DNA of 64,000 bases from a virus: IMG/VR virus record IMGVR_UViG_3300032267_000592, positions 1 to 64,000 of that record; one strand, given 5' to 3'. The notes beneath the pieces are model-generated. The model did no database searches and was not told the origin of the DNA. It worked only from the letters and a program-made list of their open reading frames with translations. Position numbers and translations under genes: made by a program. Each line of letters starts with the position of its first letter. Positions within the stretch are counted from its first letter, which is position 1. Shown in pieces: positions 8,991 through 30,941 of this stretch.

Positions 8991-8991
8991 A

Positions 8992-14448: not shown

Positions 14449-15494
14449 TGTATAATATAAAAAATAATAAAATAGCTTGTTTTAGTGATATTCATTTGGG
14501 GTTGGGGTTGGATAATGAAATGTGGCATAACATATCATTAGACTTTGCAAAATGGGCATCGGAAACCCTTAAAACTAGAGGAATAGAAGAGATTCTAATT
14601 CCAGGTGATGTATTTCACAATAGAAGTGAAATATCAGTTAAAACTTTATCAATTTCGAAGCAATTTTTTGATTATTTTAATAATTTTACAATATACGTAT
14701 CTACCGGAAATCATGATTGTTTTAGAAAACATGATAGTGAGATTAATTCAATCTCAATGCTTAACAATTGGCAAAACATACACGTTTTTGACAAATCACC
14801 AGTTAATTTAAAATATAAAAACAAAAATATAACCATGATACCATGGGGTACTACATTCGATAATATCCCAAATAGCGATATTATCTTTGGTCATTTTGAG
14901 ATTTCTTCTTTTTATATGAACTCTTTCAAAGTATGCGAAAATGGTATGAAATCTTCTGATCTTTTTAAAAAATCTCCATATATAGTGTCTGGTCATTTTC
15001 ATAAAAAAGACTACAGAAAGTACGAAAACGGCGAAATACTATATTTGGGAAGTCCATTTCAACATAATTTCGGGGATTGCTCAGACGAAAGAGGAATTTA
15101 CATATTTGATATTGATAAAAATGAATTTGAATTCATTAAAAATAATATTTCCCCTAAACATTTTAAAATTTCTGTAAAAAAAATAACAAATCAAGTATAC
15201 TCAGACCAAGAATTAACGGATATTGTATCAAATAACATAATAAGTTTGATATGTGACTGTAAAATCGAACAAGAAGCATTACTATCAATTCAATGCAAAA
15301 TTAATGAATTAAAACCATTAACAATTAGAATTGATTACGAAAACAATGATACTGAAATTGATTTAAAAAATGATTCTGAATATAATTCCGGTTCTCTATT
15401 AACAGATATAGAGACATATATAGACGAAATGGATATTGATTGTAAAAAAGAAGTTGCAGAATACATAAAGGAAGTTTATAATACACTAGTATGA
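14445..15494 (+). CDS. gp47: Recombination endonuclease subunit (gp47, Mre11/SbcD-like)
   Basis: Metallophosphoesterase motifs SDIHLG, GDVFH, GNHD, GHFE, SGHFH and YLGSP. Confidence 0.93.
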   Translation: MMYNIKNNKIACFSDIHLGLGLDNEMWHNISLDFAKWASETLKTRGIEEILIPGDVFHNRSEISVKTLSISKQFFDYFNNFTIYVSTGNHDCFRKHDSEINSISMLNNWQNIHVFDKSPVNLKYKNKNITMIPWGTTFDNIPNSDIIFGHFEISSFYMNSFKVCENGMKSSDLFKKSPYIVSGHFHKKDYRKYENGEILYLGSPFQHNFGDCSDERGIYIFDIDKNEFEFIKNNISPKHFKISVKKITNQVYSDQELTDIVSNNIISLICDCKIEQEALLSIQCKINELKPLTIRIDYENNDTEIDLKNDSEYNSGSLLTDIETYIDEMDIDCKKEVAEYIKEVYNTLV

Positions 15495-16249
15495 ATATAG
15501 ATGAAATAGGAATAGCAATATTAGATGTTTACACGCAAGAAGATTATGAAAATTGTTACAATTCCATACCAAATGAATATAAGAATAATTTAATCGTAAT
15601 ATCAGACACTAATAATAAAATAAAACACACCAATATAAAGAGATACGGCAATGGTGTGCAATTTGCAACACTCAGAAATTTTGCTTTATCGCATTTTAGG
15701 GTTAATGGGTTAAAACATTTCTTTTTGGTTAATTCCAATCAAACGATAAAAGACGTAAATGTATTCGCAAATACAATAAAACTTGCAGAAAATTTTGGAA
15801 TTTGGTTTTTTACCGGACCAAGTGATGTAAAAGTGCCAATAGAAGATGAAGATAAAAAATTAACATTGAATTTATCGACAAATATCAATAGCGACTTCAT
15901 TTATATCTTTAGTGGAATTGTTTCTAATATTGGTTATTTCGATGAAAGATTTTTCAACACTAAAGATCTAGATGTCTTGGATTATATAATAAGAATGAGA
16001 GAAAAAAATATATATCCACCAATAAACTACATTTCAACTATTGATAATCTAGTTCATTCGTCAAATAGTAAAATACAAAAGCAAAATTATAAAGAAATGG
16101 ATAACGCCGATCAAAGCGTAAATCTATCATATGCGTATTTTATGTTTAAACATAAATATATACCATCTCAAGGCGACCCACAACCAGTATCAAATGATGT
16201 TTTAATGAAACAATTAGAAGAAATTCAGACCAAATATGCAAAAAAATAA
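15491..16249 (+). CDS. GT2-like protein with a degenerate catalytic motif
   Basis: It aligns with the next two GT2 ORFs (IGIAI, KHFFLV, IGYFDERF, YPP), but the EDD motif is replaced by NSN. Confidence 0.55.
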   Translation: MNIDEIGIAILDVYTQEDYENCYNSIPNEYKNNLIVISDTNNKIKHTNIKRYGNGVQFATLRNFALSHFRVNGLKHFFLVNSNQTIKDVNVFANTIKLAENFGIWFFTGPSDVKVPIEDEDKKLTLNLSTNINSDFIYIFSGIVSNIGYFDERFFNTKDLDVLDYIIRMREKNIYPPINYISTIDNLVHSSNSKIQKQNYKEMDNADQSVNLSYAYFMFKHKYIPSQGDPQPVSNDVLMKQLEEIQTKYAKK

Positions 16250-17045
16250 AATTGGTTGCGGTTTAATAACTTGCGATAGAGATTTTTTTTATAAAAACTC
16301 AGTCACATCCCTTTCAAGTGCTGCAAAAAATAAAAATATAGAATTTGTAGTAATAAATGATGGTCTGGAAAAACTTTCAGTTTATCCTGATAATTTTATA
16401 GAGACTGGTGGTAAAAAAGGAGTTGCGGTTGCTAAAAACTTAGCATTAAAATTTTTATTAAATTCTGGATGCGAACATATATTTTTAATGGAAGATGACG
16501 TTGAGATAGTGGACGACAATGTATTTGATCATTATATTGATACGGCAAATAAAACAGGTATTTTACATTTAAATTATGGATTACATGGAAATCATAATAA
16601 AAAACAAGATGGTTCTATTAATTTGATAAAAACTGTAAATTATCCAAATAATAGCTCAATAGATTTATATGGAAATCTATTAGGAGCTTTTTCTTATTAT
16701 CATAGAAGTGTTTTGGATAAAATAGGATTGATGCATGAAGAATTTTACAATGCAATGGAACATGTACATCATACATATCTTTCAATTGTGCATAATTTTC
16801 ATCCACCATTTAGATATTTTGCAGATGCACATGATTCATCAAGATATTTGAAAGATATATTACCAGATCATCAACAAAGTAAAATTAGAAATGAAAACTT
16901 TCAAGAAACTTTTAAAAAAGGTCTTGATATTTTTATAAAGAAAACTGGATTTTCGGTTGTATATGGTTATGGACCAGAGGAAAAGATAACCACTGAAAAA
17001 GAATGTTTGAAAAAATTAAAAGAAATTTATAACAATGCAAAATAA
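16236..17045 (+). CDS. GT2-family glycosyltransferase
   Basis: Motifs IGCGLITCDR, VINDG, GVAVAKN, HIFLMEDD, IGLMHEEF and HPPFRYFAD. Confidence 0.85.
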   Translation: MQKNKIGCGLITCDRDFFYKNSVTSLSSAAKNKNIEFVVINDGLEKLSVYPDNFIETGGKKGVAVAKNLALKFLLNSGCEHIFLMEDDVEIVDDNVFDHYIDTANKTGILHLNYGLHGNHNKKQDGSINLIKTVNYPNNSSIDLYGNLLGAFSYYHRSVLDKIGLMHEEFYNAMEHVHHTYLSIVHNFHPPFRYFADAHDSSRYLKDILPDHQQSKIRNENFQETFKKGLDIFIKKTGFSVVYGYGPEEKITTEKECLKKLKEIYNNAK

Positions 17046-17820
17046 TCAAAAAATTGGCGTAGGTGTTGTAACATATAACTCCGAATCTTATTTCAAATCA
17101 TTATATGATAGTTTAAATGGGGCAAATATAGATGAGTTTGTAGTTGTTAATGGTGGAAATAAATATGAAAATAAATACGATTGCGATTGGATTCAACATA
17201 AAAAAAATTATTATCCAGCTGCATGTAGAAATGATTGTATAAATTATTTGTTGAATAGAGATGTTGAATATCTATTCCTAATTGAAGATGATCAAATAAT
17301 AAAAAATGTTAATATTTTTCAAAAATACATAGAAACTTCAAATATAAGTGGTTTGGATTATTTTTCTTTTGTTAGTATGAGTTATAATTCTGGAAGTCCA
17401 AATAACAGAAACCCGAAACTAACAGTTAATTATAGTGATGATATTGCGGTTTCTTTTTATGCAAACATGTGCAATGAATTTGTTTTTTTTAAATCATCGA
17501 TTATTAAAAAAATTGGATTATATGATACATCATTCAGAGATCCATTTGATATAGACATGATGGTGAGATTGGCAAAAGATATCGACACCGTAGCACCGTT
17601 TTGGTATTTTGCCGATATAGAAAAATCAGACGATTACATCATGAATAACCCAAATGCAACCAGTCGATTACAATCACCAGATAGACCAGATGGATCGAGA
17701 GAACAAAGAATACAAGAACAATGGGAGTTTTTTCATCAAAAACATAACTTTCACGTAAATGATATCGCAGATACATCTCCAGAAGAAGTAATTCAACAAT
17801 TAAAAAGAATTAAACCGTGA
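17035..17820 (+). CDS. GT2-family glycosyltransferase
   Basis: Motifs IGVGVVTYNS, AACRN, YLFLIEDD, IGLYDTSF and APFWYFAD. Confidence 0.85.
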   Translation: MQNNQKIGVGVVTYNSESYFKSLYDSLNGANIDEFVVVNGGNKYENKYDCDWIQHKKNYYPAACRNDCINYLLNRDVEYLFLIEDDQIIKNVNIFQKYIETSNISGLDYFSFVSMSYNSGSPNNRNPKLTVNYSDDIAVSFYANMCNEFVFFKSSIIKKIGLYDTSFRDPFDIDMMVRLAKDIDTVAPFWYFADIEKSDDYIMNNPNATSRLQSPDRPDGSREQRIQEQWEFFHQKHNFHVNDIADTSPEEVIQQLKRIKP

Positions 17821-18590
17821 AAATAGCAATAGGTATTAATATATTTGGTTCATATAAAAGACAAGACCAGTGTATAAGCGTTTTGAAAAAAATAAAATCA
17901 AAATACACAGATATTGATTTATATAATATAACATTTGAAAATGAAAATAACACGGATTTAGATTTTACACATTTACCTTTATTAAAGAGAAAAGCTAAAG
18001 ATTTAATAAAAGAATCTACTTCAGATAAACCGTTATCAAAAGACTTTTTTGACATATTATCTCAACAAGAATGTGATTATTTTTTATTTTTAAATAGTGA
18101 TATCCTTTTAACTGAAAAAGTTATTAAATTAATATTAAAAGCCGAACACGAAACGTATTCATTTTCTAGACATGATTGTTATACGATAGAAAGTTTAGAT
18201 AAGATTATACCTTTTCGTATAGAAATCGCAGGATTTGATGCATGGGCGGTTAAAAAAGAGTGGTGGTTAAAAAATAACCATAATTTTTGTGATTATATTT
18301 ACGCAGAACATCTATGGGATGTTTCTTTTGCTTTGGAAATGTATAATAAAAGTAACTCATTTATAGGTAATAAAGAAGTTTATATTTGCCACGAAAAACA
18401 CGAATTAAAATGGAATGAAAAATCACCAGAAGCAATTTATAATTCCATGATTTGGGATAAAACCCCATATGCAATAAATTGGCATGAGTTTATTTTTTCA
18501 AATTTAATTAAAAGAAAACCATATGGACAATTTTTAGAACCATTATATAATGAAGATGAATTAGAGAAAAAATTTTTAAAATGCAATTAA
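17817..18590 (+). CDS. Putative GT-A glycosyltransferase
   Basis: Contains DYFLFLNSDILL (DXD-like), GFDAWA, WD and CHEKH, and lies within the GT operon. Confidence 0.6.
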   Translation: MKIAIGINIFGSYKRQDQCISVLKKIKSKYTDIDLYNITFENENNTDLDFTHLPLLKRKAKDLIKESTSDKPLSKDFFDILSQQECDYFLFLNSDILLTEKVIKLILKAEHETYSFSRHDCYTIESLDKIIPFRIEIAGFDAWAVKKEWWLKNNHNFCDYIYAEHLWDVSFALEMYNKSNSFIGNKEVYICHEKHELKWNEKSPEAIYNSMIWDKTPYAINWHEFIFSNLIKRKPYGQFLEPLYNEDELEKKFLKCN

Positions 18591-19240
18591 GTAGTTTTTA
18601 TAGTAAAATCTATATTATTCATTGGAAACCTTTAAAAGAGCGCAAAGAGTATCTTGTTTCAATGTTCAAAAATTTCGGTATAAATCATTTAATCGAATGG
18701 GTTGATCAGTATGAAACGGAAAAAAATTTAATTGAATTTAAAAACCCCTTTAATATTAATAAAAAAGTTTTAGCTATAAACCATTCTCACATTTATTGTT
18801 ATAAACAACAAATACAAAACAATTACAAAAATGTTCTAATATTAGAAGATGACATTGATTTTGAAACAATCAATTTACCATTATATTTAAATCAATGCGC
18901 AGATGAGTTTGTAGAATTGGATGGCGATATTGCATTTTTAAGTTCTTGTTGCGGTATAAAAGTTGAAAACCCAACACCACCAAAATTATTATATTATAAT
19001 GAATCATATATGACCAGATGTATGGGTGCTTACATAACAAATATAAGATGTGCCGAAAAATTAATATCATTGGTGGGTACAAATTTTCATGCTATTGATA
19101 GAATTTTAAATTATATTTTACCACATGTTGATATAAGAGTTTTGTGGTCATCTGTTATATTGAAACAAGGTTCTGAAACTGGAAAATATAAAAGTAGTCT
19201 TGTGGAAATAAGAGATAAATTTGGTAATTATGTCAATTAA
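18581..19240 (+). CDS. GT25-family glycosyltransferase
   Basis: Motifs IYIIHW..LKERK, SHIYCY, VLILEDD, GAYI and AID. Confidence 0.8.
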   Translation: MQLSSFYSKIYIIHWKPLKERKEYLVSMFKNFGINHLIEWVDQYETEKNLIEFKNPFNINKKVLAINHSHIYCYKQQIQNNYKNVLILEDDIDFETINLPLYLNQCADEFVELDGDIAFLSSCCGIKVENPTPPKLLYYNESYMTRCMGAYITNIRCAEKLISLVGTNFHAIDRILNYILPHVDIRVLWSSVILKQGSETGKYKSSLVEIRDKFGNYVN

Positions 19241-19243
19241 AAT

Positions 19244-19945
19244 ATGAAATTATATACAGTATTTACAGAATCGCATTATGATATGTTTAAAGATTATTTT
19301 ATCAAATCTTTTCCATTTGACGTTGATTTAGAACTTGTAGTAAAATTTAAACCACAGGTATGCCCCACTTCAGAATTTCACAGTCAAGGTTGGCGAGATA
19401 CAATGCAGTATAAGGTTCAATGTTTTATCGATGCTGCTTACGAAACAAAAGACGGAGAATGTTTCATGTTTTCCGATCCTGATATTCAATTTTTTAAAAC
19501 TTTTAGCAGCGATGTGTTAAAATACATTGAAGGTTGTGATGCTGCTTTTCAAAATGATTATGGGGGTGGTGTTAATACTGGGTTTTTTATAATGAGATCT
19601 ACTTCAAAAACTAGAGCTTTTTTAAAAACAGTTCAAGGCAATTTACACAATTTTCCAGAAGAACAAGTTTGTTTTAACGCATTAATGAGAAATTTCAATA
19701 ATCCACAGTATGATAAAATTGCATATAGATGGAGATTTTTACCAAAAGAGTATTGGACATATGGAGAACTTGCATGGCAAAGAATAACACCAAACAATTC
19801 ATCCGGAACTTGGCAAGGACTTGAGGATTTCAATATACCGGAAAATATAATAATTCATCATGCAAATTGGACATCATCGTTTAAGAATAAAATAAAACTA
19901 TTAGATGTAGTTAAACAAAAATATGATAAACTTAAAACAATTTAA
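19244..19945 (+). CDS. Nucleotide-diphospho-sugar transferase (GT77-like)
   Basis: Motifs FMFSDPDIQF, FQND, VNTGFFIMRS, EQVCFN and IHHANW...KIKLL. Confidence 0.75.
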   Translation: MKLYTVFTESHYDMFKDYFIKSFPFDVDLELVVKFKPQVCPTSEFHSQGWRDTMQYKVQCFIDAAYETKDGECFMFSDPDIQFFKTFSSDVLKYIEGCDAAFQNDYGGGVNTGFFIMRSTSKTRAFLKTVQGNLHNFPEEQVCFNALMRNFNNPQYDKIAYRWRFLPKEYWTYGELAWQRITPNNSSGTWQGLEDFNIPENIIIHHANWTSSFKNKIKLLDVVKQKYDKLKTI

Positions 19946-20807
19946 TCAATTCATCTTAGAGGTGGATCAACCCGCATATCCACCATACCACGAAGGAAAA
20001 TATCTCGAAAGATATTTTATTGATTTTTATAAAGAGAAAAGAAGTGAAATAGATCAAACTGGTTATCATTTTTTACCAGTATGTTGGACTGATTTATACC
20101 TTTATAGATATGATCTTTTAAATCAATTACAAAATGTTTTAGATTCATTGGATCCAAATTTAAAGTATTTTACAGTATCACAGCACGATGATGCTCCTTT
20201 TCAAAAATTACCCGAAAATACTTTAAAATTCTCTGCTGGGGGGAATCAACCAAATTGCATACCAATACCTTTAATCTGTAGTGGTATCAAAAACATAGAA
20301 AAAAAAGAAAAAGATATATTTTGTAGTTTTGTTGGTAGCGTTTGCCAAAGTATACCAGGACCCGGTAAAATTGCATATGATTTAAGAATGAATATGTTAG
20401 AATGTTTAGTAAATAAACCCAATTATGTCTTAAAACCAAGACAATGGTCATCAAAAATAGAAAACGATAGACAGGATTTGTTTTTAGATATTACCAGTAG
20501 AAGTAAATTTACATTATGCCCTCGTGGATATGGGGGTACCAGCTTCAGACTTTATGAAACAATGCAATTAGGGTCAATACCAGTTTACATTTATCACGAA
20601 ACCCCATATGTTCCATTTTCGAATCAATTAGATTGGAATAAATTAGCAGTTTTGGTAAACTCTAATGATATGTCAAAGATAGATGATATTTTAAATGATA
20701 TATCTGATGAAAAATATAACGAAATGTTGGATTATACACAATCAATATATTCAAAATATTTTACTTTGGATGGAATGTGTGATAATATATTGAAATATTT
20801 AAAATGA
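19923..20807 (+). CDS. Exostosin-family (GT47-like) glycosyltransferase
   Basis: Motifs KDIFCSFVGS, SKFTLCPRGYGGTSFRLYETMQLGSIPVYI and PFSNQLDW. Confidence 0.85.
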   Translation: MINLKQFNQFILEVDQPAYPPYHEGKYLERYFIDFYKEKRSEIDQTGYHFLPVCWTDLYLYRYDLLNQLQNVLDSLDPNLKYFTVSQHDDAPFQKLPENTLKFSAGGNQPNCIPIPLICSGIKNIEKKEKDIFCSFVGSVCQSIPGPGKIAYDLRMNMLECLVNKPNYVLKPRQWSSKIENDRQDLFLDITSRSKFTLCPRGYGGTSFRLYETMQLGSIPVYIYHETPYVPFSNQLDWNKLAVLVNSNDMSKIDDILNDISDEKYNEMLDYTQSIYSKYFTLDGMCDNILKYLK

Positions 20808-21472
20808 ACGGTTTAAATGTTGATAAAATTTATGTTTGTCATTGGGATAAACTAATAGATAGAAAAGAATACATCATAAACCATTTAAATAAAAAAGGTA
20901 TTCGTGATTTTGAATTTATTGAATCTTATAATAAAGAAAATTGGAATATAGATGATATAAAAAAAGAATATCCTGTAATTTTTAACAGTTTTGCACACAA
21001 TTCTTTTGGATTAACTAATATACCATTAAAATATTCCGAAATATCATTAGTGTTAAAACATTGTCAAATTATAAAAGATATAGTTGATAAAAAATACAAT
21101 TGTTGTTTAATTTTTGAAGACGATGCTCTCTTACATAACGATTTTATCAATCAATTTAATCTATATAAACAACAATTACCACAAGACTGGGACTTAGCAT
21201 GGGTTGGATCATGTTGCGGACTGAATGCGCCATACACCGAAGGAAAGAACGTATATGAAATGGATGGCACCAGATGCACACATGCGTATGCAATCAGTTA
21301 TAGTGGCGCATGTAAAATATATCCAATACTTAATACTACAAATGATGCTGCCGATTGGTTTTTAAACCGAGTAATCAAACAATTATCATTAAAAAATTAT
21401 TGGTTTGAACCTCCATTAGCATTTCCAAATGGTAGATTTGAAACTACAATAGCTAATAATATATTTAACTGA
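20804..21472 (+). CDS. GT25-family glycosyltransferase
   Basis: Motifs IYVCHW..LIDRK, EISLVLKH, LIFEDDA, LPQDWD, CTHAYAIS and AADW. It is a paralogue of 18581..19240. Confidence 0.85.
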   Translation: MNGLNVDKIYVCHWDKLIDRKEYIINHLNKKGIRDFEFIESYNKENWNIDDIKKEYPVIFNSFAHNSFGLTNIPLKYSEISLVLKHCQIIKDIVDKKYNCCLIFEDDALLHNDFINQFNLYKQQLPQDWDLAWVGSCCGLNAPYTEGKNVYEMDGTRCTHAYAISYSGACKIYPILNTTNDAADWFLNRVIKQLSLKNYWFEPPLAFPNGRFETTIANNIFN

Positions 21473-22197
21473 TGAAAATATTTTTTAATTATGCGGATTT
21501 AAACCCCAAACACATAGAAAGTCAAAAATGCAATGCACAAATAGCAAGACAATTCAATATTTTTGATGAGGTATATGAATTAAATAAAAATAAAATAGAT
21601 ATAAATTTTTATAAACAATATTCACATATACTGAACCAACCCAGAGGAGCTGGATTTTGGTTATGGAAACCATATTTTATTAATGAATTTTTAAATCAAT
21701 CTAATGAAAATGACATAATCGTTTATGCGGATTCTTCCATTAGAATTGATAAAGATATAACTCCATTATTTGAAATACTGGAAGAAACTCAAGGTATATT
21801 GACATTTATATCATCTTTGGGGGATGAAAATTTCAATCCCGAAAAAACACATACAAAAAAAGATATATTCGTAAAAATGGGGTGTGATAATGATTATTAT
21901 TATAATGGAAAATATAACTGTCAATTTAATGGAGCATTCATAATAATAAAAAACAATAATTTTAGTAAAAATTTTGTTAAAGAATGGCTTGAACTTTCGT
22001 GTGATGAGCAATTGTTAACAGATTTACCAAGTAATAATAAAAATTATTTAGAATTTAAAGATAATCGACACGATCAATCTATATTATCATTACTTTCAAA
22101 GAAAAACGATTTATACCCTTACCCAGACCCAACACAATGGGGAAATGATTATAGGGGTAATTCTAAAGTTATACAGTTTTTATCACATCTACGATGA
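21472..22197 (+). CDS. Putative GT-A glycosyltransferase (RGAGFWLWKP-type)
   Basis: Motifs RGAGFWLWKPYFI, IVYADS, FVKEWL and RHDQSILSLL. Confidence 0.6.
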   Translation: MKIFFNYADLNPKHIESQKCNAQIARQFNIFDEVYELNKNKIDINFYKQYSHILNQPRGAGFWLWKPYFINEFLNQSNENDIIVYADSSIRIDKDITPLFEILEETQGILTFISSLGDENFNPEKTHTKKDIFVKMGCDNDYYYNGKYNCQFNGAFIIIKNNNFSKNFVKEWLELSCDEQLLTDLPSNNKNYLEFKDNRHDQSILSLLSKKNDLYPYPDPTQWGNDYRGNSKVIQFLSHLR

Positions 22198-23030: not shown

Positions 23031-23570
23031 TATTTTTATTACAAAAGATTGACATCCATCCATAGCTAATCCAATAAGTTTTTGATTATACTGTTCACAG
23101 AATCTACTAACTGCGGAAGTAACCCCATGACAACTGCCATAATCATGTCCCATTAATAAACCACCATTTTTAATACGGTCTAATGATAAAATTAAATCAG
23201 TATAGACCACTTCTTCGGTGTGATCTCCATCAATATATATAGCATCGAAGTAATCATTATACCAATTTTTTAAAAAATTAGCAGAATCCATTCTTATAAG
23301 GTGTATGTTTGGTTTATCCATTGCTTGTTTATATAAAGAAATATAAACAGATTCCATACTTTCGACTATTAAATGGTTATTGCCATCTTTATCACCGGAA
23401 CCATACTCACCCCGCCATATATCAACAAAAAACAAATTGTTAAATTTTGTTTTTTTAATAATTTCCTTTGAAAAATCACCCTTAAACACCCCAATTTCTA
23501 ATATATTTGAATTTTCTGGAATTAAATTTAATAATTCGCTTCTTGTTTTATAATATTGAATGTCGCTCAT
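23022..23570 (-). CDS. Class I SAM-dependent methyltransferase (Methyltransf_24-like)
   Basis: Motifs ILEIGVFKGDFS, VDIW, FDAIYIDGDH and GGLLMGHDY. Confidence 0.88.
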   Translation of the reverse strand: MSDIQYYKTRSELLNLIPENSNILEIGVFKGDFSKEIIKKTKFNNLFFVDIWRGEYGSGDKDGNNHLIVESMESVYISLYKQAMDKPNIHLIRMDSANFLKNWYNDYFDAIYIDGDHTEEVVYTDLILSLDRIKNGGLLMGHDYGSCHGVTSAVSRFCEQYNQKLIGLAMDGCQSFVIKISK

Positions 23571-23575
23571 ATTGT

Positions 23576-23632
23576 TTATTTAATATTTTTTTTAAAATGT
23601 CAATTGATATGTTGTTTTTATATGGTATATAT
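23576..23632. promoter_or_regulatory. Divergent promoter pair with back-to-back -35 boxes
   Basis: tgtcaa (23598-23603, TTGACA on the minus strand) abuts ttgata (23604-23609, plus strand), which is followed 16 bp later by tatata. The pair lies between divergent genes. Confidence 0.45.
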
Positions 23633-23644
23633 TATTAATATAAA

Positions 23645-24355
23645 ATGATACCTAAAAAAATATATCAAACTTGGGAAACCAAAGATATACCCGATAAAAT
23701 ACAACAAAAAATAAATGAGATGATGGAAGTAAATCCGGAGTATTCTCATGAATTATATGATGATTCGGATAGATTTTTCTTCATTAAAGAAAACTATGGA
23801 AAACAAGTAAGTGATGCTTATGAAAGTTTAAATTTAGGTGTAGCTAAAGCTGATTTGTGGAGGTATGCAATTTTATATAAAAATGGAGGTATATATTTGG
23901 ATTTAGATTCTCAAATATATTCAAATTTAAATTCTCTTATAGATGAAAATGATAAAGCTATCATTTCGAGAGAAGGAAATCCTAATACTTTTGTACAATG
24001 GTGTTTGATGTTTGATAAAAATCATCCAATTTTAGAAAATACTCTTAAAAGATGTATATATAATATTTTAAATAAAACTACCGAAAATATATTTAGATTA
24101 ACTGGTCCAGCTTTATTTTCAGATTCAATTAGAGAGGTATTAGCCCCATTAAACTTAGATATTTATAATACAAGTGATTTAATTATTAATGAAAAGATGA
24201 ATAATGAAAATTTCTCTAAATTTAAAACTAAATTTTATTCGGTAGATTATAAAAATTATTGTAACTTTAAACATGAATATAATGAAGAATTGTACAAATT
24301 TAAACCACATTGGAAAATAGAACAACAGAATACAAGTGTTTTTAAAATAATATGA
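23645..24355 (+). CDS. GT32 (Och1/SUR1-like DXD) glycosyltransferase
   Basis: Motifs MIPKKIYQTW, NPEY, KADLWRYAILYKNGGIYLDLD and TGP. Confidence 0.9.
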   Translation: MIPKKIYQTWETKDIPDKIQQKINEMMEVNPEYSHELYDDSDRFFFIKENYGKQVSDAYESLNLGVAKADLWRYAILYKNGGIYLDLDSQIYSNLNSLIDENDKAIISREGNPNTFVQWCLMFDKNHPILENTLKRCIYNILNKTTENIFRLTGPALFSDSIREVLAPLNLDIYNTSDLIINEKMNNENFSKFKTKFYSVDYKNYCNFKHEYNEELYKFKPHWKIEQQNTSVFKII

Positions 24356-25305
24356 AAATAGCATATCATGACAACATCTTATCATTAAGAGGAACTACAG
24401 TTGCATTATATGATTATGCATATTATTGTAAAAAATTTCTAAACATAGAAGGTGTTATTTTATATAATAAAACATACAATGAAAATAATATCGACGTATA
24501 TAATAAATTTAAAAATAATGGATTTAATTTATTTTCATATGAAAATAAATCTGAAATAGATAAAATTTTAGAATCTGAAAAATGTGATTCTTTATTTGCT
24601 ATAAAAGCTGGATCATATGATGGTGTAATATCTAAAAATTATAAAAATTTAATTATGGGAGTCGGGATATGCAATCATCATCATATACACGGAGATAAAT
24701 TTGCAGTATGCTCAGAGTGGCTTTCTAAAATGTCTAACAATCAAATACCATGCGTTCCCCATATGATATCTTTACCAGAAAATAACGAAGATCTTAGAAG
24801 TGAATTAAACATACCAAAAGATGATTTTGTTTATGGTAGAAATGGTGGTAGAGATACTTTTGATATATCTTTTGTAAAAGAAGAAATAATAGATCTTATT
24901 AATAAAAATAAAAATGTATGGTTTTTATTTCAAAATACAGATGTATTTTATAATCACGAAAGAATAATATATCTAAACCCATCAGCTGATTTAGAATATA
25001 AAGTTAAATTTATTAACACTTGTGATGCTATGTTACATGCTAGATATACCGGAGAGTCTTTTGGTATTTCATGTGGAGAATTTTCAAGTAAAAATAAACC
25101 AGTTATAACTTTTATGCATTCTCCGGAACAAAGTCACGTAGAAATATTAAAAGATAAAGGAATTTACTATTCAAATAAAGAAAATATAAGAGATATATTT
25201 AATAATTTAGATAAAAATTTTATTAATTCAAAAAATTGGAATGCTTATGAGGATTATACCCCAGATAAAGTAATATCTCGCTTTGAAAACTTTTACTTAA
25301 AATGA
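24352..25305 (+). CDS. GT-B fold (GT4-like) glycosyltransferase
   Basis: Motifs RGTTVALYDYA, LRSELNIP, YGRNGG and CDAMLHAR..GESFGISCGEFS..NKPVIT. Confidence 0.8.
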   Translation: MKIAYHDNILSLRGTTVALYDYAYYCKKFLNIEGVILYNKTYNENNIDVYNKFKNNGFNLFSYENKSEIDKILESEKCDSLFAIKAGSYDGVISKNYKNLIMGVGICNHHHIHGDKFAVCSEWLSKMSNNQIPCVPHMISLPENNEDLRSELNIPKDDFVYGRNGGRDTFDISFVKEEIIDLINKNKNVWFLFQNTDVFYNHERIIYLNPSADLEYKVKFINTCDAMLHARYTGESFGISCGEFSSKNKPVITFMHSPEQSHVEILKDKGIYYSNKENIRDIFNNLDKNFINSKNWNAYEDYTPDKVISRFENFYLK

Positions 25306-25979
25306 AAATAGCAGTTTGTTTATCTGGACAACCAAGACATTTAGATTTAGGTATAAAAAATATATTAGATGTATTTTCACAATATAATGTAGATTATTTT
25401 GTTCATACGTGGTGGGATGACAATTTTAAAAACCAAAAAAGTAATATTAATGGCGGTAGAAGTTTTGTTTGGAAGGAAAATTCTTTAGAAAAAATAATGA
25501 ATAAACTATCTCCTAAATTATTATATCATGAAGTTCCAAAAATATTTGAAACGTATGGTGGCGTTAATTACGAAACATTAACACCAAATTCGGTGCATAG
25601 TATGTTTTATTCTATAAAAATAGCAAACGAATTAAAAAAAACACATGAAAAATTTAACAATTTTGTTTATGATATTGTTATTAGATGTAGATTTGATATT
25701 GAATTTCATTCTTTTAATTTAAATTTAAAAGAATTAGATTATAGTAAAATATATACATATCACACCGGAATAGAACAATTACCAAACGATCAATTTGCAA
25801 TATCTAATTCTAGTAATATGGATTATTATTCTCAGTTATATGATAATTTAAAATGTTATTATGACGAAGGATTTACTGGATTTATAGGGGAAAGATTATT
25901 AAATTATCATTTAAGAAAAAAAAATTTAACTAAGTTTACAAACGATAACGAGCTAATAAATAATATTATAAAAATATGA
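25302..25979 (+). CDS. Putative glycosyl/phosphotransferase of the MK(I/V)AxCxxGxPR family, paralogue 1
   Basis: Motifs MKIAVCLSGQPR, DYFVHTW, SMFYS, YDIVIRCRFD, NDQFA and GERLL. Confidence 0.6.
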   Translation: MKIAVCLSGQPRHLDLGIKNILDVFSQYNVDYFVHTWWDDNFKNQKSNINGGRSFVWKENSLEKIMNKLSPKLLYHEVPKIFETYGGVNYETLTPNSVHSMFYSIKIANELKKTHEKFNNFVYDIVIRCRFDIEFHSFNLNLKELDYSKIYTYHTGIEQLPNDQFAISNSSNMDYYSQLYDNLKCYYDEGFTGFIGERLLNYHLRKKNLTKFTNDNELINNIIKI

Positions 25980-26536
25980 ATATGATAGATTATAAAACAT
26001 TAATACCAAAAGAAGAAATTGTAATAGTTCAAATAGGATCACATGATGGAATTGTAGGAGAAGAATATGGACTACAAGAAATATTAGATAATCATTCAAA
26101 TTTTAAATTATTTTTAATTGAACCTATTCCTCAATTTTTTAATAATCTTACTAATGTATATGGTAAATATGGTGAAAAAATTACATATTGCAATTTTGCA
26201 ATAACAGATATTAACGGTAAAACCAGAATGGTCGAACAGGGGGGAATGTCAAGAATAGATCATAATTATGGAAGTTTAGAAGTTAATTCTTTAGATTGGG
26301 ATACTTTTTTAAATTTATATAACATAAAAAATATCGATTTACTATTAATCGACTGTGAAGGATATGAATTTAATATATTACAACAGATTAATTATGATAA
26401 ATGCAGACCAAAAGTAATACGTTATGAGTATATGCATATTGGTGATAAAGAAGGATGTGATAATTTTATCACGTCCAAAAACTATAATATAGATTATTGT
26501 ATACACGATCATACGTATAATAAAATAGCATATTAG
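25976..26536 (+). CDS. FkbM-family methyltransferase
   Basis: Motifs VQIGSHDG, LIEP, NFAI, IDLLLIDCEGYE and RPKVIRYE. Confidence 0.85.
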   Translation: MNMIDYKTLIPKEEIVIVQIGSHDGIVGEEYGLQEILDNHSNFKLFLIEPIPQFFNNLTNVYGKYGEKITYCNFAITDINGKTRMVEQGGMSRIDHNYGSLEVNSLDWDTFLNLYNIKNIDLLLIDCEGYEFNILQQINYDKCRPKVIRYEYMHIGDKEGCDNFITSKNYNIDYCIHDHTYNKIAY

Positions 26537-26539
26537 TTC

Positions 26540-27262
26540 ATGAAAGTTGCTCTTTGTTTTTATGGTCAACCTAGATTTATAAATAACTTAAATTCTTATA
26601 AATCATATAAAGAATATATATACGGGCAAAGCGACGTAGACGTATTTTCACATTATTGGTTCGATCAAAATGATAATAAGTTTTCAACTTCCGATTGGAG
26701 CAGCATTCACGAAAATTATGTATATGAAGATACTGAAAATTTAATTAAATCTTTATATAACCCAGTAAAGTATATCGCAGACTCAAGAAATTTTTTAAAA
26801 TACGAAGATGTAAAAGATATAGTTAAAAATTTAAATTATTTTAGTGTAAATAATTTTTATAATTTACAATCTCATTTATATTCTTACGAACAAAATTTTA
26901 AATTATTATCACAACACATAGAAAATACTAAACAAAAATATGATTTTGTAATAATAAGTAGATATGATTTAAAAATAACAGACTTTCCAAATCTTAATAC
27001 ATTATCTAAAAATAAAGTATATGTAAATGGGTTTGGTGGAAATAATTTCACCGACGCTATTCTTATTTTAGATCCCATTTTTATAAACAGTTTTAATGCA
27101 TATTCTAAATTTAGAGAGATATCTAATATAACTCCAATTTTTACGTCTGAAGAATACAAAAAACAATGTTTTTTATTAACTAATTCTATTGAGGATTTTT
27201 CTTTTATAAAATTAAGAGGAGGATTACTACGAAATCAAACTGATACCGTTGGACAATTTTAA
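26540..27262 (+). CDS. MK(I/V)AxCxxGxPR family putative transferase, paralogue 2
   Basis: Motifs MKVALCFYGQPR, DVFSHYW, LYNP, SHLYS and YDFVIISRYD. Confidence 0.6.
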   Translation: MKVALCFYGQPRFINNLNSYKSYKEYIYGQSDVDVFSHYWFDQNDNKFSTSDWSSIHENYVYEDTENLIKSLYNPVKYIADSRNFLKYEDVKDIVKNLNYFSVNNFYNLQSHLYSYEQNFKLLSQHIENTKQKYDFVIISRYDLKITDFPNLNTLSKNKVYVNGFGGNNFTDAILILDPIFINSFNAYSKFREISNITPIFTSEEYKKQCFLLTNSIEDFSFIKLRGGLLRNQTDTVGQF

Positions 27263-27265
27263 AAT

Positions 27266-28336
27266 ATGAGTTTATTCAGTTTAAATAAAATACCAGTATT
27301 GTTATCAAGCACATTTGATTGTAAAGATAACGATATATACTACGATTTTGATTTAGATATAGATGAAAATACGGGTGTTATCTTCCAAAAAAATATACCA
27401 CCACAAAATATTTTGTATAAAAATGCTAGAAATTCAGGAATGGGTAAAGTTTGGGATGAACATTATAATTGTTTTTATAATTTTATTATAAAAAATATAA
27501 ATTTAAAAAATAAAAACATATGCGAAATAGGTTCGGGGAATGGAGTTTTAGCAAAAAAAATATCTAATCATTATAAAATAACTTGTTATGAACCATCTCC
27601 ATGTTTTGAATTTAATAATAATTTAATTTTAAAAAAACAATTTTTTAATAAAAATATTACAGAAAAGTATGATATTATAATTTCTTCTCATACATTAGAA
27701 CATATGGAAAATGTAAATCAATTTTTAATAGATATACATAACAATTTAAATGAAAATGGTTTTATTATTATGTCATTTCCTAATTTTGAAATTGGGTTAA
27801 TTAAAAATTTTATAAACATTTTTAATACGGAACATATTTCTTATTTTACACCAGATTCAGCTAAGAGAATTTTTAATAAAAATTATTATCAAAATTGCAT
27901 TCTTGAAGAATATAAAGATCATAGTTTATTCATAATAGGCCAAAAAAATAATAAAAATAATTTTGAAATTAATGAAATTGATATTAAAAAAATTAAAAAT
28001 TTAATTCAAAATTATGAATTTAATATTTTTAATAAAGTTAATAAAGCAATTCAAATTATTAATCAAAGAGATAAAAATTTGCCATTATATATTTTTGGAT
28101 GTCACGCCATGACATCTATATTTCTACATATATCAAAAATTAATCATTCGACATTTAATTGTATATTGGATAATGATCCATTAAAAACTAATTCTAGATT
28201 ATACGGAACCGATTTAAAATGCAAATTACCTAAAGATGTACCTATTGGATATGTTTTATTGAATGGTGCAGCATATCACGATGAAATTAAAAATAAACTA
28301 ATTAACGATGGATTTAAAATTTTAGAATGGATTTAA
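27266..28336 (+). CDS. Class I SAM methyltransferase resembling NDP-hexose C-methyltransferases
   Basis: Motifs ICEIGSGNG, YEPS, YDIIISSHTLEH, FPN and EHISYF, plus a C-terminal domain with YIFG..LDNDP.K...LYG. Confidence 0.75.
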   Translation: MSLFSLNKIPVLLSSTFDCKDNDIYYDFDLDIDENTGVIFQKNIPPQNILYKNARNSGMGKVWDEHYNCFYNFIIKNINLKNKNICEIGSGNGVLAKKISNHYKITCYEPSPCFEFNNNLILKKQFFNKNITEKYDIIISSHTLEHMENVNQFLIDIHNNLNENGFIIMSFPNFEIGLIKNFINIFNTEHISYFTPDSAKRIFNKNYYQNCILEEYKDHSLFIIGQKNNKNNFEINEIDIKKIKNLIQNYEFNIFNKVNKAIQIINQRDKNLPLYIFGCHAMTSIFLHISKINHSTFNCILDNDPLKTNSRLYGTDLKCKLPKDVPIGYVLLNGAAYHDEIKNKLINDGFKILEWI

Positions 28337-28340
28337 AACA

Positions 28341-29705
28341 ATGGTAAAATTAATAGCATTTGATTTAGATGGAGTATTAGTTGAAGCTAAACATATACAT
28401 TTTGAAGCTTTAAATATAGCTTTATCTGAAGTTGGAAACGAGTACGTTATAACAGAACAAGAACATTTAGGATTGTTTGATGGACTTAAAACTAATCAAA
28501 AATTAAATATATTATCAAGTAATAAAAAACTACCAAGAGAAAAACATACTCAAATATGGAATAGAAAACAACAAATAACTTTAGAAAAAATTTTAAATTT
28601 AAAAATAAATGAAGAATTAGTTTATTTGTTTAAAAAATTAAAAGAAAAAAATTTTTTAATAGCTTGCTGTTCAAATTCAATTAGAAAATCTGTTTTTGTA
28701 ATGCTTTCAAAAATAGGAATAATTGAGTATTTTGATTTGATATTATCAAATGAAGATGTTAAAAATTCCAAACCACATCCAGAAATATATTGGAGAGCAA
28801 TGTCGGAATTATCAGTTTTACCGGAAGAGACATTAATAGTTGAAGATTCACCTCACGGTCTTTTATCTGCTTATAGATCAAAAGCTAATATATTAAGAAT
28901 TAAAAATCCAAAAGATCTAACATTTGACAAAATAATTAAAATGACTTATAATAATGAAAATTTAAATATGAATATAAAATGGCAAGATGATAAATTAAAT
29001 GTATTAATACCTATGGCTGGAGCTGGTAGTAGGTTTGAAAAAGCAGGATATACATTCCCCAAACCTTTAATTGAAGTTAGAGGTAAACCTATGATTCAAG
29101 TTGTAACGGATTGTTTGAGTATCGATGCTAATTATATATACATAGTACAAAAATCTCATAGAGAAAAATATAATTTAGATGCATTACTTAATTTAATAAC
29201 TCCAAATTGTAAAATTGTAGAAGTTAATGAATTAACGGAGGGAGCAGCATGTACTACACTTTTAGCGAAAGAATTTATAAATAATGATCAACCTCTTATC
29301 ATTGCTAATTCCGATCAATATTTAGATTGGAATTCTAGCGAATTTATGTATAAAATGCAAGAACAAGATGTTGACGCGGGAATTCTTACATTTGAATCTA
29401 CGCATCCTAAATGGTCTTACGCAAAAGTGAATGAAAATGGATACGTAACAGAAGTAGCAGAAAAAAATCCAATTTCTAATATAGCTACAGTAGGTGTTTA
29501 TTATTGGAAATGTGGAGAAGATTATGTTAAGTATGCAGAAAAAATGATAAATGAAAATATAAGAGTTAATAATGAATTTTATGTCTGTCCGGTATTCAAT
29601 CAAGCAATACAAGATAATAAAAAAATTAAAACATTTAATATAGAAAAAATGTGGGGGATTGGTACACCAGAAGATCTTGATTATTTTTTAAAAAATCATA
29701 AATGA
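28341..29705 (+). CDS. Fusion of a HAD-family phosphatase and a sugar-phosphate nucleotidyltransferase (BcbE-like)
   Basis: N-terminal HAD motifs FDLDGVL, CSNS, KPHPEIY and VEDSPHG. C-terminal motifs LIPMAGAGSRF..AGY..PKPLI, TEGAACT, IANSDQ, EKNPIS, NNEFYVCPVFN and GIGTPEDL. Confidence 0.88.
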   Translation: MVKLIAFDLDGVLVEAKHIHFEALNIALSEVGNEYVITEQEHLGLFDGLKTNQKLNILSSNKKLPREKHTQIWNRKQQITLEKILNLKINEELVYLFKKLKEKNFLIACCSNSIRKSVFVMLSKIGIIEYFDLILSNEDVKNSKPHPEIYWRAMSELSVLPEETLIVEDSPHGLLSAYRSKANILRIKNPKDLTFDKIIKMTYNNENLNMNIKWQDDKLNVLIPMAGAGSRFEKAGYTFPKPLIEVRGKPMIQVVTDCLSIDANYIYIVQKSHREKYNLDALLNLITPNCKIVEVNELTEGAACTTLLAKEFINNDQPLIIANSDQYLDWNSSEFMYKMQEQDVDAGILTFESTHPKWSYAKVNENGYVTEVAEKNPISNIATVGVYYWKCGEDYVKYAEKMINENIRVNNEFYVCPVFNQAIQDNKKIKTFNIEKMWGIGTPEDLDYFLKNHK

Positions 29706-30118
29706 TTATTATTTCTCATAGAGGAAACACTAAAGGATCAGATATTTCTATCGAAAACAATCCCAATCACATTAAAAATTTAATATATTCTAATATTTAT
29801 ACTGAAGTTGATGTTTGGTTTATTGATGAAAAATTTTATTTGGGACATGACGCCCCACAATACGAGATCGATTTAAATTTTTTAAAAAATAATTTACTTT
29901 GGTGTCATGCAAAAAATTTAAACGCACTTAAACAACTACTAGAACAAAGAATTGTTTGTTTTTGGCATCAGAACGATGATTTTACTTTAACTTCTAATAA
30001 TTACATTTGGACTTATCCAGATAAACCCATCAACTACTCATCAATTATAGTAGACACTACTCCAAGCTGGCGTAATAAAAATTACAATTGTTATGGTGTG
30101 TGTGTTGATTATTTGTAA
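29702..30118 (+). CDS. Small PLC/glycerophosphodiester phosphodiesterase-like protein
   Basis: Motifs IISHRGN, EN, EVDVW, LGHD, WCHAKN, FWHQ.DD.TLTS and GVCVDY. It overlaps the nucleotidyltransferase gene (ATGA). Confidence 0.7.
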   Translation: MIIISHRGNTKGSDISIENNPNHIKNLIYSNIYTEVDVWFIDEKFYLGHDAPQYEIDLNFLKNNLLWCHAKNLNALKQLLEQRIVCFWHQNDDFTLTSNNYIWTYPDKPINYSSIIVDTTPSWRNKNYNCYGVCVDYL

Positions 30119-30140
30119 AATTATATCATAATCGTAAAAC

Positions 30141-30890
30141 ATGAAAGTAGCTGTGTGTTTATTTGGTTATCCGAGGCATTATGAATTGGGTTTTAAATGT
30201 CATAAAAATTTTTTAGAATCAATTGATTATGATTTTTTTATACATTCATGGTGTGAAGAAAGTTCAACGCAAAATCACATTGAAAAATTGTACAATAATA
30301 TAAACGATTTATATCGTCCTAAAAAACTAGAAATAGAAAAACAAAAAAATTTTTCAAATTTTTTTGAAAATGATTCAAATTTTAATAAAAAAAATAATAT
30401 AGATACAGAGTCCATTCATCGATATATTTCTCCAATATACTCGATGTATAAAGTTGGAAATTTACTCGAAGAATATTTATGTGAATATGATGTTGTAATT
30501 GTCACAAGAACTGATGTTTTTTGTAATGAAAAATTAAAAAATTTTAATATATACGATTTAAACTGTATATATTCATCATATTGTGAAGGGCACAGGTGGG
30601 ATATGAGTTTAAATGATGGAATCATTGATGTTAAAATGTTGCTTTCAAATCCAAAAAATATATTGTTTTTAACTAAATTATATGAAAATTTAAAAGAATA
30701 TAATATTAATAATGAAGTACGATTGTGCCACCATGAGGTATTTGCACATCATCTTAAAAAATTAAATTGTAGTTTTGATATGATTTTTAATGGTGTATCG
30801 AATGTGTGGTGGATATTAAGGAACAACAATGTATTATATGGAAATTTAGGAAACTCAAATATGTGCCATTATCCACACATTTTTCAATAA
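30141..30890 (+). CDS. MK(I/V)AxCxxGxPR family putative transferase, paralogue 3
   Basis: Motifs MKVAVCLFGYPR, DFFIHSW, LYRP, SPIYS and YDVVIVTRTD. Confidence 0.6.
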   Translation: MKVAVCLFGYPRHYELGFKCHKNFLESIDYDFFIHSWCEESSTQNHIEKLYNNINDLYRPKKLEIEKQKNFSNFFENDSNFNKKNNIDTESIHRYISPIYSMYKVGNLLEEYLCEYDVVIVTRTDVFCNEKLKNFNIYDLNCIYSSYCEGHRWDMSLNDGIIDVKMLLSNPKNILFLTKLYENLKEYNINNEVRLCHHEVFAHHLKKLNCSFDMIFNGVSNVWWILRNNNVLYGNLGNSNMCHYPHIFQ

Positions 30891-30906
30891 TTTTGCAGCA
30901 TTTAAC

Positions 30907-30934: not shown

Positions 30935-30941
30935 TTCTAAT

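Follow-up and report, generated by a model that had tools for sequence, protein, structure and literature searches.

What is a block of twenty tightly packed genes doing between the genes for the two subunits of a phage recombination nuclease, and onto which acceptor would its product be built? The question is raised by a stretch of 64,000 nucleotides, hereafter called the window, that comprises the first 64 kb of the linear IMG/VR record IMGVR_UViG_3300032267_000592 (85,666 bp, genome G000, about 40% complete according to CheckV). Here, the genes for gp47 and gp46 are split by an island at positions 15491–30890, in which an earlier interpretation made from the letters alone and without database searches (the sequence-only reading) had seen a phage-borne, soluble, multi-enzyme pathway for glycan assembly and methylation. 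Our analysis supports this view and leads us to conclude that the island is genuine and forms a hypervariable cassette for glycan assembly in an uncultured freshwater clade of T4-like phages.

The island consists of exactly 20 open reading frames (ORFs) of 138–454 aa, referred to as O1 to O20 from left to right, and its flanks are identified by phrog_100 and phrog_77, in full agreement with the sequence-only reading. Nineteen ORFs reside on the plus strand and one on the minus strand (23022–23570), and neighbors overlap by 1–23 nt or are 3–4 nt apart, save for gaps of 74 nt (23571–23644), 22 nt and 51 nt. For each of the 20, homologues were found in contigs of related phages, in PHROGs or in cultured cyanophages, and they are therefore not chance ORFs. 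Family calls were judged by Pfam's own cut-offs, and PHROG profile, NCBIfam, hhalign and PDB-sequence profile searches were run besides. On this basis, the island is predicted to encode soluble enzymes, including at least 8–10 glycosyltransferases (GTs) of at least seven families, three S-adenosylmethionine (SAM)-dependent methyltransferases and a fusion of a HAD domain with a nucleotidyltransferase (Table 1).

Solubility was assessed with a crude 19-residue hydropathy scan. The highest value for the island ORFs is 1.64, reached in the HAD domain of O18 by a segment that contains charged residues, and the lack of a transmembrane helix noted earlier is thus borne out. Seven ORFs elsewhere in the record reach 1.9 in the same scan. 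Among the 218 ORFs of 19 related islands, one attains 1.9, in an N-terminal segment that possibly stems from a mis-called start, and three attain 1.6. The apparent absence of a flippase and of a priming enzyme also held up. Families for polyprenyl-phosphate priming transferases (PF00953, PF02397) and for a Wzx-type flippase (PF01943) were found in none of six records, with positive controls; Wzy and ABC families had no search of their own. Among the six are a relative of 202,880 bp that carries terminal repeats and is 100% complete and another that is 92% complete.

Whether the position of the island is conserved and its content variable was a test set beforehand, and the answer is affirmative. 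A scan of IMG/VR with gp46 yielded 44 related loci (34–56% identity), across which the order hel-x219-gp47-[island]-gp46-GT-gp43 is repeated, hel being a helicase gene and x219 a small ORF. Both borders of the slot could be placed in 23 loci, a number that contains near-duplicates (G001/G004 and L008/L010) and thus represents somewhat fewer independent cases. The slot is filled with 5.7–12.3 kb in 19 of these loci and holds only 8–35 nt in the other four (L038, L039, L040 and L045). With 15.4 kb, the island in the window is the largest for which both borders are available; that of another relative, G006, extends over at least 16.2 kb up to the end of the contig.

Clustering at 50% identity sorts the 218 ORFs of the 19 filled slots into 115 groups, and a looser grouping gives 74 families. 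The expectation of a conserved slot with variable content is refined by a conserved three-gene base at the left end of the islands. An O1-like gene comes first in 16 of the 19 islands; behind it come O2-like genes (14), O3-like genes fused to a GT7 domain (12) and two more GT2 genes, each found in 12 islands. Ten islands have an O13-like gene. A Pfam census of the 115 cluster representatives, in which overlapping models tally some proteins more than once, gave FkbM (15), GT2 (10), NAD-dependent epimerase/dehydratase (7, with GDP_Man_Dehyd at 6), GT7C and Methyltransf_24 (5 each), the rhamnosyl O-methyltransferase family RMNT_CmcI (4), GT47, GT10, GT32 and GT25 (3 each) and GT11 (2). One relative encodes a GT2+GT7+FkbM fusion of 709 aa. 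The comparison shows that the clade keeps the slot and the O1–O3 base and that the remaining genes are swapped between divergent phages.

Direct evidence for such exchange is provided by G006. Two patches, one reaching from O9 to most of O12 and including the inverted O11, the other covering O20, are 92.0% and 93.4% identical at the DNA level in the window and in G006, whereas gp46 of the two phages is only 53% identical, which points to recent transfer of modules between divergent phages. The protein encoded by the GT-like gene downstream of gp46 shares 68% and gp43 59% identity between the two. Along its length, gp46 is 72% identical to its G006 counterpart over the first 200 residues, poorly conserved in its middle part and about 61% identical at its end; the border of the second patch was therefore placed near the start of gp46 and not within the gene.

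Table 1. Predicted features of the gp47–gp46 island, its borders and the patches shared with G006 (positions in the window)
Feature	Position	Strand	Evidence and remarks
gp47 (SbcD/Mre11-like), left border	14445..15494	+	phrog_100 6.5e-60; Metallophos_2; stop overlaps O1 start
O1: GT2-like paralogue of O2/O3, x-S-N for E-D-D	15491..16249	+	hhalign 97-99% to O2/O3 families; phrog_2456 2.5e-4
O2: GT-A (GT2-like) glycosyltransferase, EDD motif	16236..17045	+	phrog_1579 1.2e-21; phrog_2456 6.4e-20
O3: GT-A (GT2-like) glycosyltransferase	17035..17820	+	phrog_2456 9.2e-17
O4: conserved phage protein, no family; GT-A suspected from motifs only	17817..18590	+	95 homologues
O5: GT25	18581..19240	+	PF01755 27.7 bits, cut-off 24
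O6: nucleotide-diphospho-sugar transferase, GT77-like	19244..19945	+	PF03407 46.6 bits, cut-off 22
O7: exostosin/GT47-like	19923..20807	+	PF03016 62.4 bits, cut-off 33.4; RXYLT1_C
O8: GT25, O5 paralogue	20804..21472	+	PF01755 40.8 bits
O9: family without Pfam model, in phages and some bacteria	21472..22197	+	151 homologues without Pfam domains
O10: alpha-1,3-fucosyltransferase-like (GT10)	22194..23030	+	FucT_N 2.9e-25; Glyco_transf_10 7e-16
O11: SAM methyltransferase, sole minus-strand gene	23022..23570	-	Methyltransf_24 1.6e-14; equally inverted in G006
O12: GT32-like (DXD sugar-binding region)	23645..24355	+	PF04488 (Gly_transf_sug) 7.3e-17
O13: probable GT-B (GT4-like)	24352..25305	+	Glycos_transf_1 7e-4, 19.6 bits, under 26.4 cut-off
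O14: DUF7796 paralogue 1	25302..25979	+	phrog_13607 7.5e-32
O15: FkbM-type methyltransferase	25976..26536	+	PF05050 2.1e-13
O16: DUF7796 paralogue 2	26540..27262	+	phrog_13607 1.5e-30; 31% identity to S-CAM9 gp062
O17: SAM methyltransferase	27266..28336	+	Methyltransf_23 5e-14
O18: beta-phosphoglucomutase-like HAD + sugar-1-phosphate nucleotidyltransferase fusion	28341..29705	+	HAD_2 2.8e-29; NTP_transferase 3.2e-13
O19: small conserved protein	29702..30118	+	phrog_34507 1.5e-20 (family without an assigned function)
O20: DUF7796 paralogue 3	30141..30890	+	phrog_13607 1e-27; 93.6% identity to G006 counterpart
gp46 (SbcC/Rad50-like), right border	30942..32738	+	phrog_77 7.8e-98
Clade-wide core GT-like gene, 433 aa, between gp46 and gp43	32784..34085	+	phrog_7162 'glycosyltransferase' 2.8e-18; atlas neighbors named GT group 1
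Mosaic patch 1, O9 to most of O12 including inverted O11	21472..24314		92.0% DNA identity to G006 (blastn)
Mosaic patch 2, O20	30138..30997		93.4% DNA identity to G006 (blastn)

How many of the island proteins can be regarded as GTs? About 15 had been proposed, and this number proved too high: our tally comprises eight firm predictions, two probable ones (O1 and O13) and five proteins without a demonstrable link to GTs (O4, O9 and the three DUF7796 paralogues). The two GT25 proteins and the GT77-like, GT47, GT10 and GT32 proteins all score above the Pfam cut-off, and Pfam likewise confirmed the three methyltransferases and the HAD-nucleotidyltransferase fusion. As to the three proteins described as GT2-like, O2 and O3 are well founded (phrog_2456/1579, 1e-17 to 1e-21), whereas O1 is homologous but lacks the acidic motif and is therefore counted as probable only. 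O13, proposed to be GT4-like, is retained as a probable GT-B enzyme, although its score stays below the cut-off (Table 1).

For two ORFs that had been listed as unclassified GT-A enzymes, O4 and O9, we did not obtain any significant family. None of the 95 homologues of O4 carries a Pfam domain, Glycos_transf_2 appears in just two of 23 family members and there at E values of 0.014 or above, and a PDB match is lacking. O9 gave a faint PF03407 match below the cut-off (E 0.067) and an hhalign probability of 2% against O6. A profile match of O9 to the PDB sequence of the phosphodiesterase MJ0936 extends over 60 residues with an E value of 0.0025 and was taken as chance. The three paralogues sharing the motif MK(I/V)AxCxxGxPR (O14, O16 and O20) had also been taken for GTs. 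They belong to DUF7796/phrog_13607, an assignment confirmed in 34 of 35 aligned members of the paralogue family, and hhalign detected no link to any GT profile. In the protein atlas, DUF7796 is almost wholly viral, and its structural neighbors include a cluster named 'capsular polysaccharide biosynthesis protein', DUF8374 of the Campylobacterota and sulfotransferase or PRK fusions. The description of O19 as phosphodiesterase-like found no backing in Pfam, NCBIfam, PHROG or PDB-sequence profiles; matches in Pfam and among PDB sequences are absent altogether. O18 is hit by the NCBIfam models TIGR02009 (beta-phosphoglucomutase family) and rmlA_long (glucose-1-phosphate thymidylyltransferase), both under the cut-off. 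PDB-sequence profile searches with the unplaced island proteins and with the core GT-like protein encoded behind gp46 returned nothing significant, and an all-versus-all hhalign comparison of 11 family profiles revealed links solely among O1, O2 and O3.

These three proteins form the constant base of the island and deserve a closer look. The metal-binding E-D-D motif is present in 19 of 20 members of the O2 family and in all four of the O3 family, while the acidic pair is absent in all 17 members of the O1 family. The start of O1 overlaps the stop of gp47, and O1 is conserved at 42–53% identity despite its x-S-N sequence. Possibly, O1 is a pseudo-enzyme that has been conserved, or else a variant that works independently of metal. 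The counterparts of O3 in 12 relatives are fused to a beta4GalT-like GT7 domain (Glyco_transf_7N/7C).

The right half of the island has a different distribution. Among cultured phages, DUF7796 was detected in 20 records, of which 19 belong to Synechococcus T4-like phages. In S-CAM9, a single block contains an epimerase gene, two GT genes, a DUF7796 gene, a gene for a 461-aa 'NDP-sugar pyrophosphorylase', a second DUF7796 gene, genes for a HAD hydrolase and an O19 homologue, a third DUF7796 gene and two further GT genes. A full-length comparison of the pyrophosphorylase (gp067) with O18 shows 56% identity. The O19 homologues share 41% identity in S-CAM9 and 36% in S-SM2, where DUF7796 and the O19 homologue are found together with genes of the heptose pathway. 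The presence of the O18/O19/DUF7796 set in cultured cyanophages indicates that this half of the island is an old and portable unit. Judging from gene context, O18 could activate a sugar or another phospho-compound and the DUF7796 proteins could transfer the activated product, such that O18, DUF7796 and O19 would constitute a separate, older sub-module that adds one special substituent. The region of O12 to O17 (24001–28000) has a G+C content of 0.22–0.23 as compared to 0.27–0.28 in the first half, a difference that is consistent with separate origins of the two island halves. In S-CAM9 (L056, NC_031922), the O19 homologue occupies positions 6318–6761 and starts about 170 nt upstream of the annotated gp064 (6489–6776), the deposited start of which may lie too far downstream.

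To what would the glycan be attached? The reading that we tentatively place first is that the acceptor is one or more proteins of the phage particle. As O1–O3 are kept across phages whose gp46 proteins are 42–53% identical, the acceptor should be conserved as well, and most simply it would be a phage protein. O1–O3 would put a conserved inner glycan onto this acceptor in the cytoplasm, and the variable enzymes would elongate it, differently in each strain, to a branched oligosaccharide that is partly methylated and probably contains fucose. Fucose is suggested by GT10 here and by GT11, GT7 and GDP-mannose dehydratase in relatives. With slightly more reserve, the proposal may be extended to the widespread lake-phage clade as a whole, which would then practice an autonomous cytoplasmic protein glycosylation in the style of giant viruses: O1–O3, one of them a pseudo-enzyme kept throughout, would prime a particle protein, exchanged outer enzymes would produce a methylated, fucosylated 'serotype' coat, and the cassettes would recombine at the recombination-nuclease locus. 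A pointer in this direction comes from O2, which matches proteins in 575 cultured-phage records. As many as 542 of these are mycobacteriophages (538 Mycobacterium and four Mycolicibacterium phages), with about 31% identity over residues 6–170. Drago gp100, which is among the matches, is located at the right-end GT locus of Cheoctovirus, and glycosylated capsids are reported for the Cheoctovirus members Che8 and Rita (PMC11256854).

Several observations weigh against a particle acceptor. The likeness between O2 and the Drago protein amounts to just 31% over some 165 residues of a generic GT-A domain, and genes 108–110 of Che8 (Che8 50.0–59.5 kb) gave no tblastn match to any ORF of the window at E ≤ 1e-3. 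Neither the three capsid proteins (488–494 aa) nor the four tail-tube proteins of relatives carry Ser/Thr-rich C-terminal tails, although the acceptor segments of this system may follow other rules. A scan of the whole record for Ser/Thr-rich and Gly-X-Y proteins retrieved just the poly-Thr protein encoded at 36748–37146 and one doubtful ORF. The former, located between gp43 and UvsX, has 132 residues with a threonine run at its start (six T, K, two T) and a Gln/Pro-rich tail. Furthermore, the island is situated in the replication/recombination block and translationally coupled to gp47, away from structural genes, five of its 20 proteins are without an assigned fold, and glycan and acceptor alike are predicted from genes. 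The virion coat, which the sequence-only reading had named as the most likely acceptor, therefore stays a proposal. Finally, GT25, GT10, GT11 and GT7 are classic families of lipooligosaccharide (LOS) and O-antigen synthesis.

The latter point leads to the strongest competitor, remodeling of the host envelope, which we consider possible but rather unlikely. Soluble phage GTs would extend a lipid-linked acceptor of the host (lipid A-core, an undecaprenyl-linked O-unit or a wall glycopolymer precursor) at the cytoplasmic face, and host flippases or exporters would display the altered, methylated glycan. With the same caution, superinfection could thereby be blocked, or progeny could be kept from adsorbing to debris and to cells already infected. 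GTs of the core and LOS type are soluble enzymes that depend on carriers and exporters of the host, and the missing phage flippase is therefore no argument against this explanation. It is in line with the LOS/O-antigen-type GT25, GT10 and GT32 proteins here, with GT11, GT7, GDP-mannose dehydratase and rhamnosyl O-methyltransferase in relatives, and with the fact that the island adjoins and is coupled to replication genes of the early/middle type. Host-surface modification is also the standard reading preferred in the papers on cyanophage and pelagimyophage clusters (PMC7029224, PMC12801897), a preference that tells against a particle acceptor. In addition, a scan of 185,579 species genomes returned a single relative of O10 (43% identity), and this sole bacterial relative is encoded in a glycan cluster of the Ca. 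Actinomarina single-cell genome AG-447-I21. The cluster (L071, contig of 312,580 bp, positions 12134–24976) is of mixed orientation, has a G+C content of 0.27 and contains weak relatives of several pan-island genes. The single match at 43% is too weak to name Ca. Actinomarina as the host.

Other evidence fits host-envelope remodeling less well. Apart from one doubtful N-terminal segment, the 218 pan-island ORFs do not provide any membrane component, and complete relatives contain neither a priming enzyme nor a flippase. Conservation of O1–O3 among phages with gp46 identities of 42–53% suits a phage-encoded acceptor better than the highly variable O-antigens of hosts. A search of 5.8 billion sequences with O4, O9 and O14 brought up no named bacterial homologue that is close; for O9, the best of those with a name share 33–38% identity.

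A further possibility, which we regard as doubtful, is that the acceptor is of another kind, i.e., non-structural phage or host proteins, a soluble oligosaccharide, a glycolipid, or several acceptors at once, such that O18, O19 and the DUF7796 proteins serve a target unlike that of O1–O13. It would accommodate the findings that the O18-O19-DUF7796 set travels alone, as S-CAM9 and S-SM2 lack O1–O3 homologues in the regions examined, and that the core GT-like gene persists in relatives without an island. A positive pointer to any such acceptor is missing, however, and the tight operon packing suggests one pathway.

Hypermodification of phage DNA, which had been listed only as an alternative, has become very improbable. 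In this scenario the island enzymes, or O1–O3 together with the core GT-like protein (32784–34085), would glycosylate phage bases as a protection against restriction, as in T4, in RB69/DLP3 with their polyarabinosyl-5hoC or in methyltransferase-TET-GT systems. The position of the island does mirror that in T4, whose a-gt gene is found directly upstream of gene 47 and whose b-gt gene neighbors genes 42 and 43; GT genes that adjoin genes 47, 46 and 43 are a parallel that is real but weak. O2 gave a faint, non-significant match to a TET-associated GT (TAGT, E 0.059), and the glycans documented on phage DNA comprise up to three sugars (bioRxiv 10.1101/2023.12.21.572611, PMC13326640). According to the same sources, the known routes need a thymidylate-synthase homologue of the T4 gene 42 type, which provides hydroxymethyl- or hydroxy-pyrimidine nucleotides, or a C5-methyltransferase plus TET. 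Such enzymes for reactive bases are absent from the complete relatives: the ThyA family PF00303 was found in none of six records and the C5-methyltransferase family PF00145 in none of five, including the 100%- and 92%-complete relatives, with positive controls. Tet_JBP was likewise absent from five records, but its control remained silent and the result is uninformative. The Pfam matches of the core GT-like protein and of O1–O3, listed up to an E value of 5, do not include T4 AGT or BGT, and at least ten GTs and three methyltransferases go far beyond any known DNA glycan and the far smaller enzyme sets behind it.

An assembly artefact joining a bacterial lipopolysaccharide (LPS) locus to phage DNA can be dismissed for practical purposes, as the gp47-O1-O2-O3 and island-gp46 junctions recur in independent assemblies from many samples, a sequencing run of another study contains 0.91 of the sampled words of 14400–24300, the G+C content is uniformly low, a close bacterial relative of O10 was not found in the scan of 185,579 species genomes, and an identical O14 protein is recorded in four contigs, the longest of 166,574 bp.

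How does the island compare with known systems? The closest likeness is to the clusters for 'cell-wall synthesis and modification', or of LPS type, in cultured cyanomyoviruses (S-SCSM2R, S-SCSM1, P-SSM2, S-CAM9 and S-SM2), which also combine a T4-like backbone with many soluble GTs of mixed families. The cultured phage S-SCSM2R is described as carrying 13 GTs of at least seven families, including GT10, GT11, GT25, GT2 and GT1, plus sugar-nucleotide enzymes, and possibly the most in any marine phage (PMC12801897). Together with the O18-O19-DUF7796 set of S-CAM9, this lessens the novelty claimed in the sequence-only reading, which knew of no characterized pathway of such size in a tailed phage. 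The cyanomyovirus clusters are found elsewhere in the genome and in part scattered, whereas here one operon-like block splits gp47 from gp46, and homologues of O1–O3 were not found in the cyanophage regions examined. A GT-enriched hypervariable region is also present in the host recognition cluster, with its LPS-related genes, of pelagimyophages, for which O-chain modification against co-infection has been proposed (Zaragoza-Solas et al. 2020, PMC7029224). According to its description (PMC7029224), that island is placed among structural genes, with VrlC and gp14 on either side, carries tail fibers and is dominated by GT8, while the island here belongs to the replication/recombination block and contains neither structural genes nor any GT8 match. 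Our literature search, which did not extend to supplementary tables, brought up no paper that describes a glycan island separating gp47 from gp46, its O1–O3 base or DUF7796. The position and the conserved O1–O3 base appear to be new, and GT-rich variable clusters of aquatic T4-like phages are already in print.

The chlorovirus PBCV-1 offers the nearest analogy to glycosylation of particle proteins. It is reported to encode at least eight GTs without signal peptides, a GDP-mannose dehydratase and the GT+GT+methyltransferase fusion A064R, and to have methylated sugars (Van Etten et al. 2019, PMC7019647); A064R thus follows the same plan as the GT2+GT7+FkbM fusion of one relative. Solubility of the enzymes, such a fusion, donor genes of the fucose/rhamnose type and methylation are the parallels to PBCV-1 that speak for a particle acceptor. 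Capsid glycosylation in chloroviruses combines a conserved core with strain-specific decorations, analogous to what is proposed here. The difference is that PBCV-1 is a eukaryotic giant virus with a demonstrated particle glycan, whereas the present system is known from genes alone. Homology of the PBCV-1 type was not significant, the best case being the ten-member profile of O13, whose top PDB sequence is the chlorovirus GT B736L (E 0.4); A064R was outside this comparison. The mycobacteriophages Che8 and Rita are described as decorating capsid and tail-tube proteins with soluble GTs of their own (Freeman et al. 2023 as cited in PMC11256854 and PMC12619734), and their two or three GT genes sit at the end of the genome, as opposed to a block of 20 genes here. 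Bacterial O-antigen and capsule loci share the LOS-type GT families (GT25 twice, GT10, GT32 and GT2-like proteins), but their priming and flippase families are absent here. The gtrABC products are membrane proteins acting on bactoprenol-linked glucose in the periplasm; they resemble the island in being a phage-encoded means of glycan modification and differ in that a membrane segment is not predicted for any of the island proteins.

The surroundings of the island are those of a T4-like phage. According to PHROGs, gp46 is followed by the GT-like gene, the DNA polymerase gene gp43, UvsX and a DnaB-like (gp41-like) helicase gene, with TerL farther along; together with gp47, these make up a T4-like core around the island, and a tail tube protein (PF06841) is encoded in the window as well. 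The Gp23 capsid family PF07068 was detected in four relatives and not in the 85.7-kb record. In a comparison with 50,697 phage records, the best matches of gp46 and gp43 were T4-like cyanophages with merely 27–31% identity, which indicates a deep, uncultured T4-like lineage. The stretch was found in sequencing runs labeled as freshwater or lake metagenome. The G+C content is 0.22–0.36 over the window, 0.22–0.28 in the island and 0.23–0.30 in its flanks.

The core GT-like gene between gp46 and gp43 was recovered from all related loci but one (43 of 44), also from the four that lack an island; the exception, L028, is cut short inside gp46. With 42–73% identity, the product of this gene is more strongly conserved than gp46. 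It did not match anything in Pfam, NCBIfam or PDB sequences. Additional DNA is inserted between gp46 and this gene or between this gene and gp43 in L042 (11812–13597, with a GT47-like gene), L018 (11803–13346) and L008 (13156–14017), so that GT genes appear to accumulate just beyond the main slot, too. In L018 (16144–19714) and L036 (13102–16969), the gp43 match is broken by 1.0–1.4 kb of unmatched DNA, possibly owing to an intein, an intron or an inserted homing endonuclease. On the short contig L035 (G014), gp46 is found in two and the core GT-like gene in three pieces (8206–11133), due to frameshifts or assembly errors.

Signals of gene expression and host were sparse. With 17 matches versus 23.9 ± 5.2 expected, the T4 late-promoter motif TATAAATA shows no enrichment, sigma-70-like sites are near background (192 versus 170 ± 13), and tRNA genes are absent from the 64-kb window. 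In the whole record, cores resembling a Shine-Dalgarno (SD) sequence precede only three of 109 non-overlapping ORFs, which is below the random background of 6%. Translation initiation thus appears to be SD-independent, a trait that fits an SD-independent host and names none. Ribosomal protein bS21 (PF01165, 6.2e-11) was found in one of five records, i.e., in the 92%-complete relative (G002:C1:21101-21226), and not in the complete one. The bS21-encoding phages of PMC9723584, with genomes of 293–331 kb, are a different group, and the 'Moraphages' (PMC12619734) represent a different lineage.

What the island means for these phages depends on where the glycan ends up. If it is placed on the particle, complex virus-built coats would occur beyond the giant viruses and a few actinobacteriophages, namely in abundant aquatic T4-like phages, and would affect how these are recognized by hosts, grazers, particles and lectin-type defenses. 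If it is placed on the host, it would amount to serotype conversion by lytic phages at a scale not yet described. The island also draws attention to five conserved proteins without a family-level function (O4, O9 and the three DUF7796 proteins), which are linked by context to sugar activation in the clade and in cultured cyanophages. In either case, the clade constitutes a natural experiment, with one slot, a fixed base of three genes, at least 115 interchangeable gene types and four empty-slot relatives as controls.

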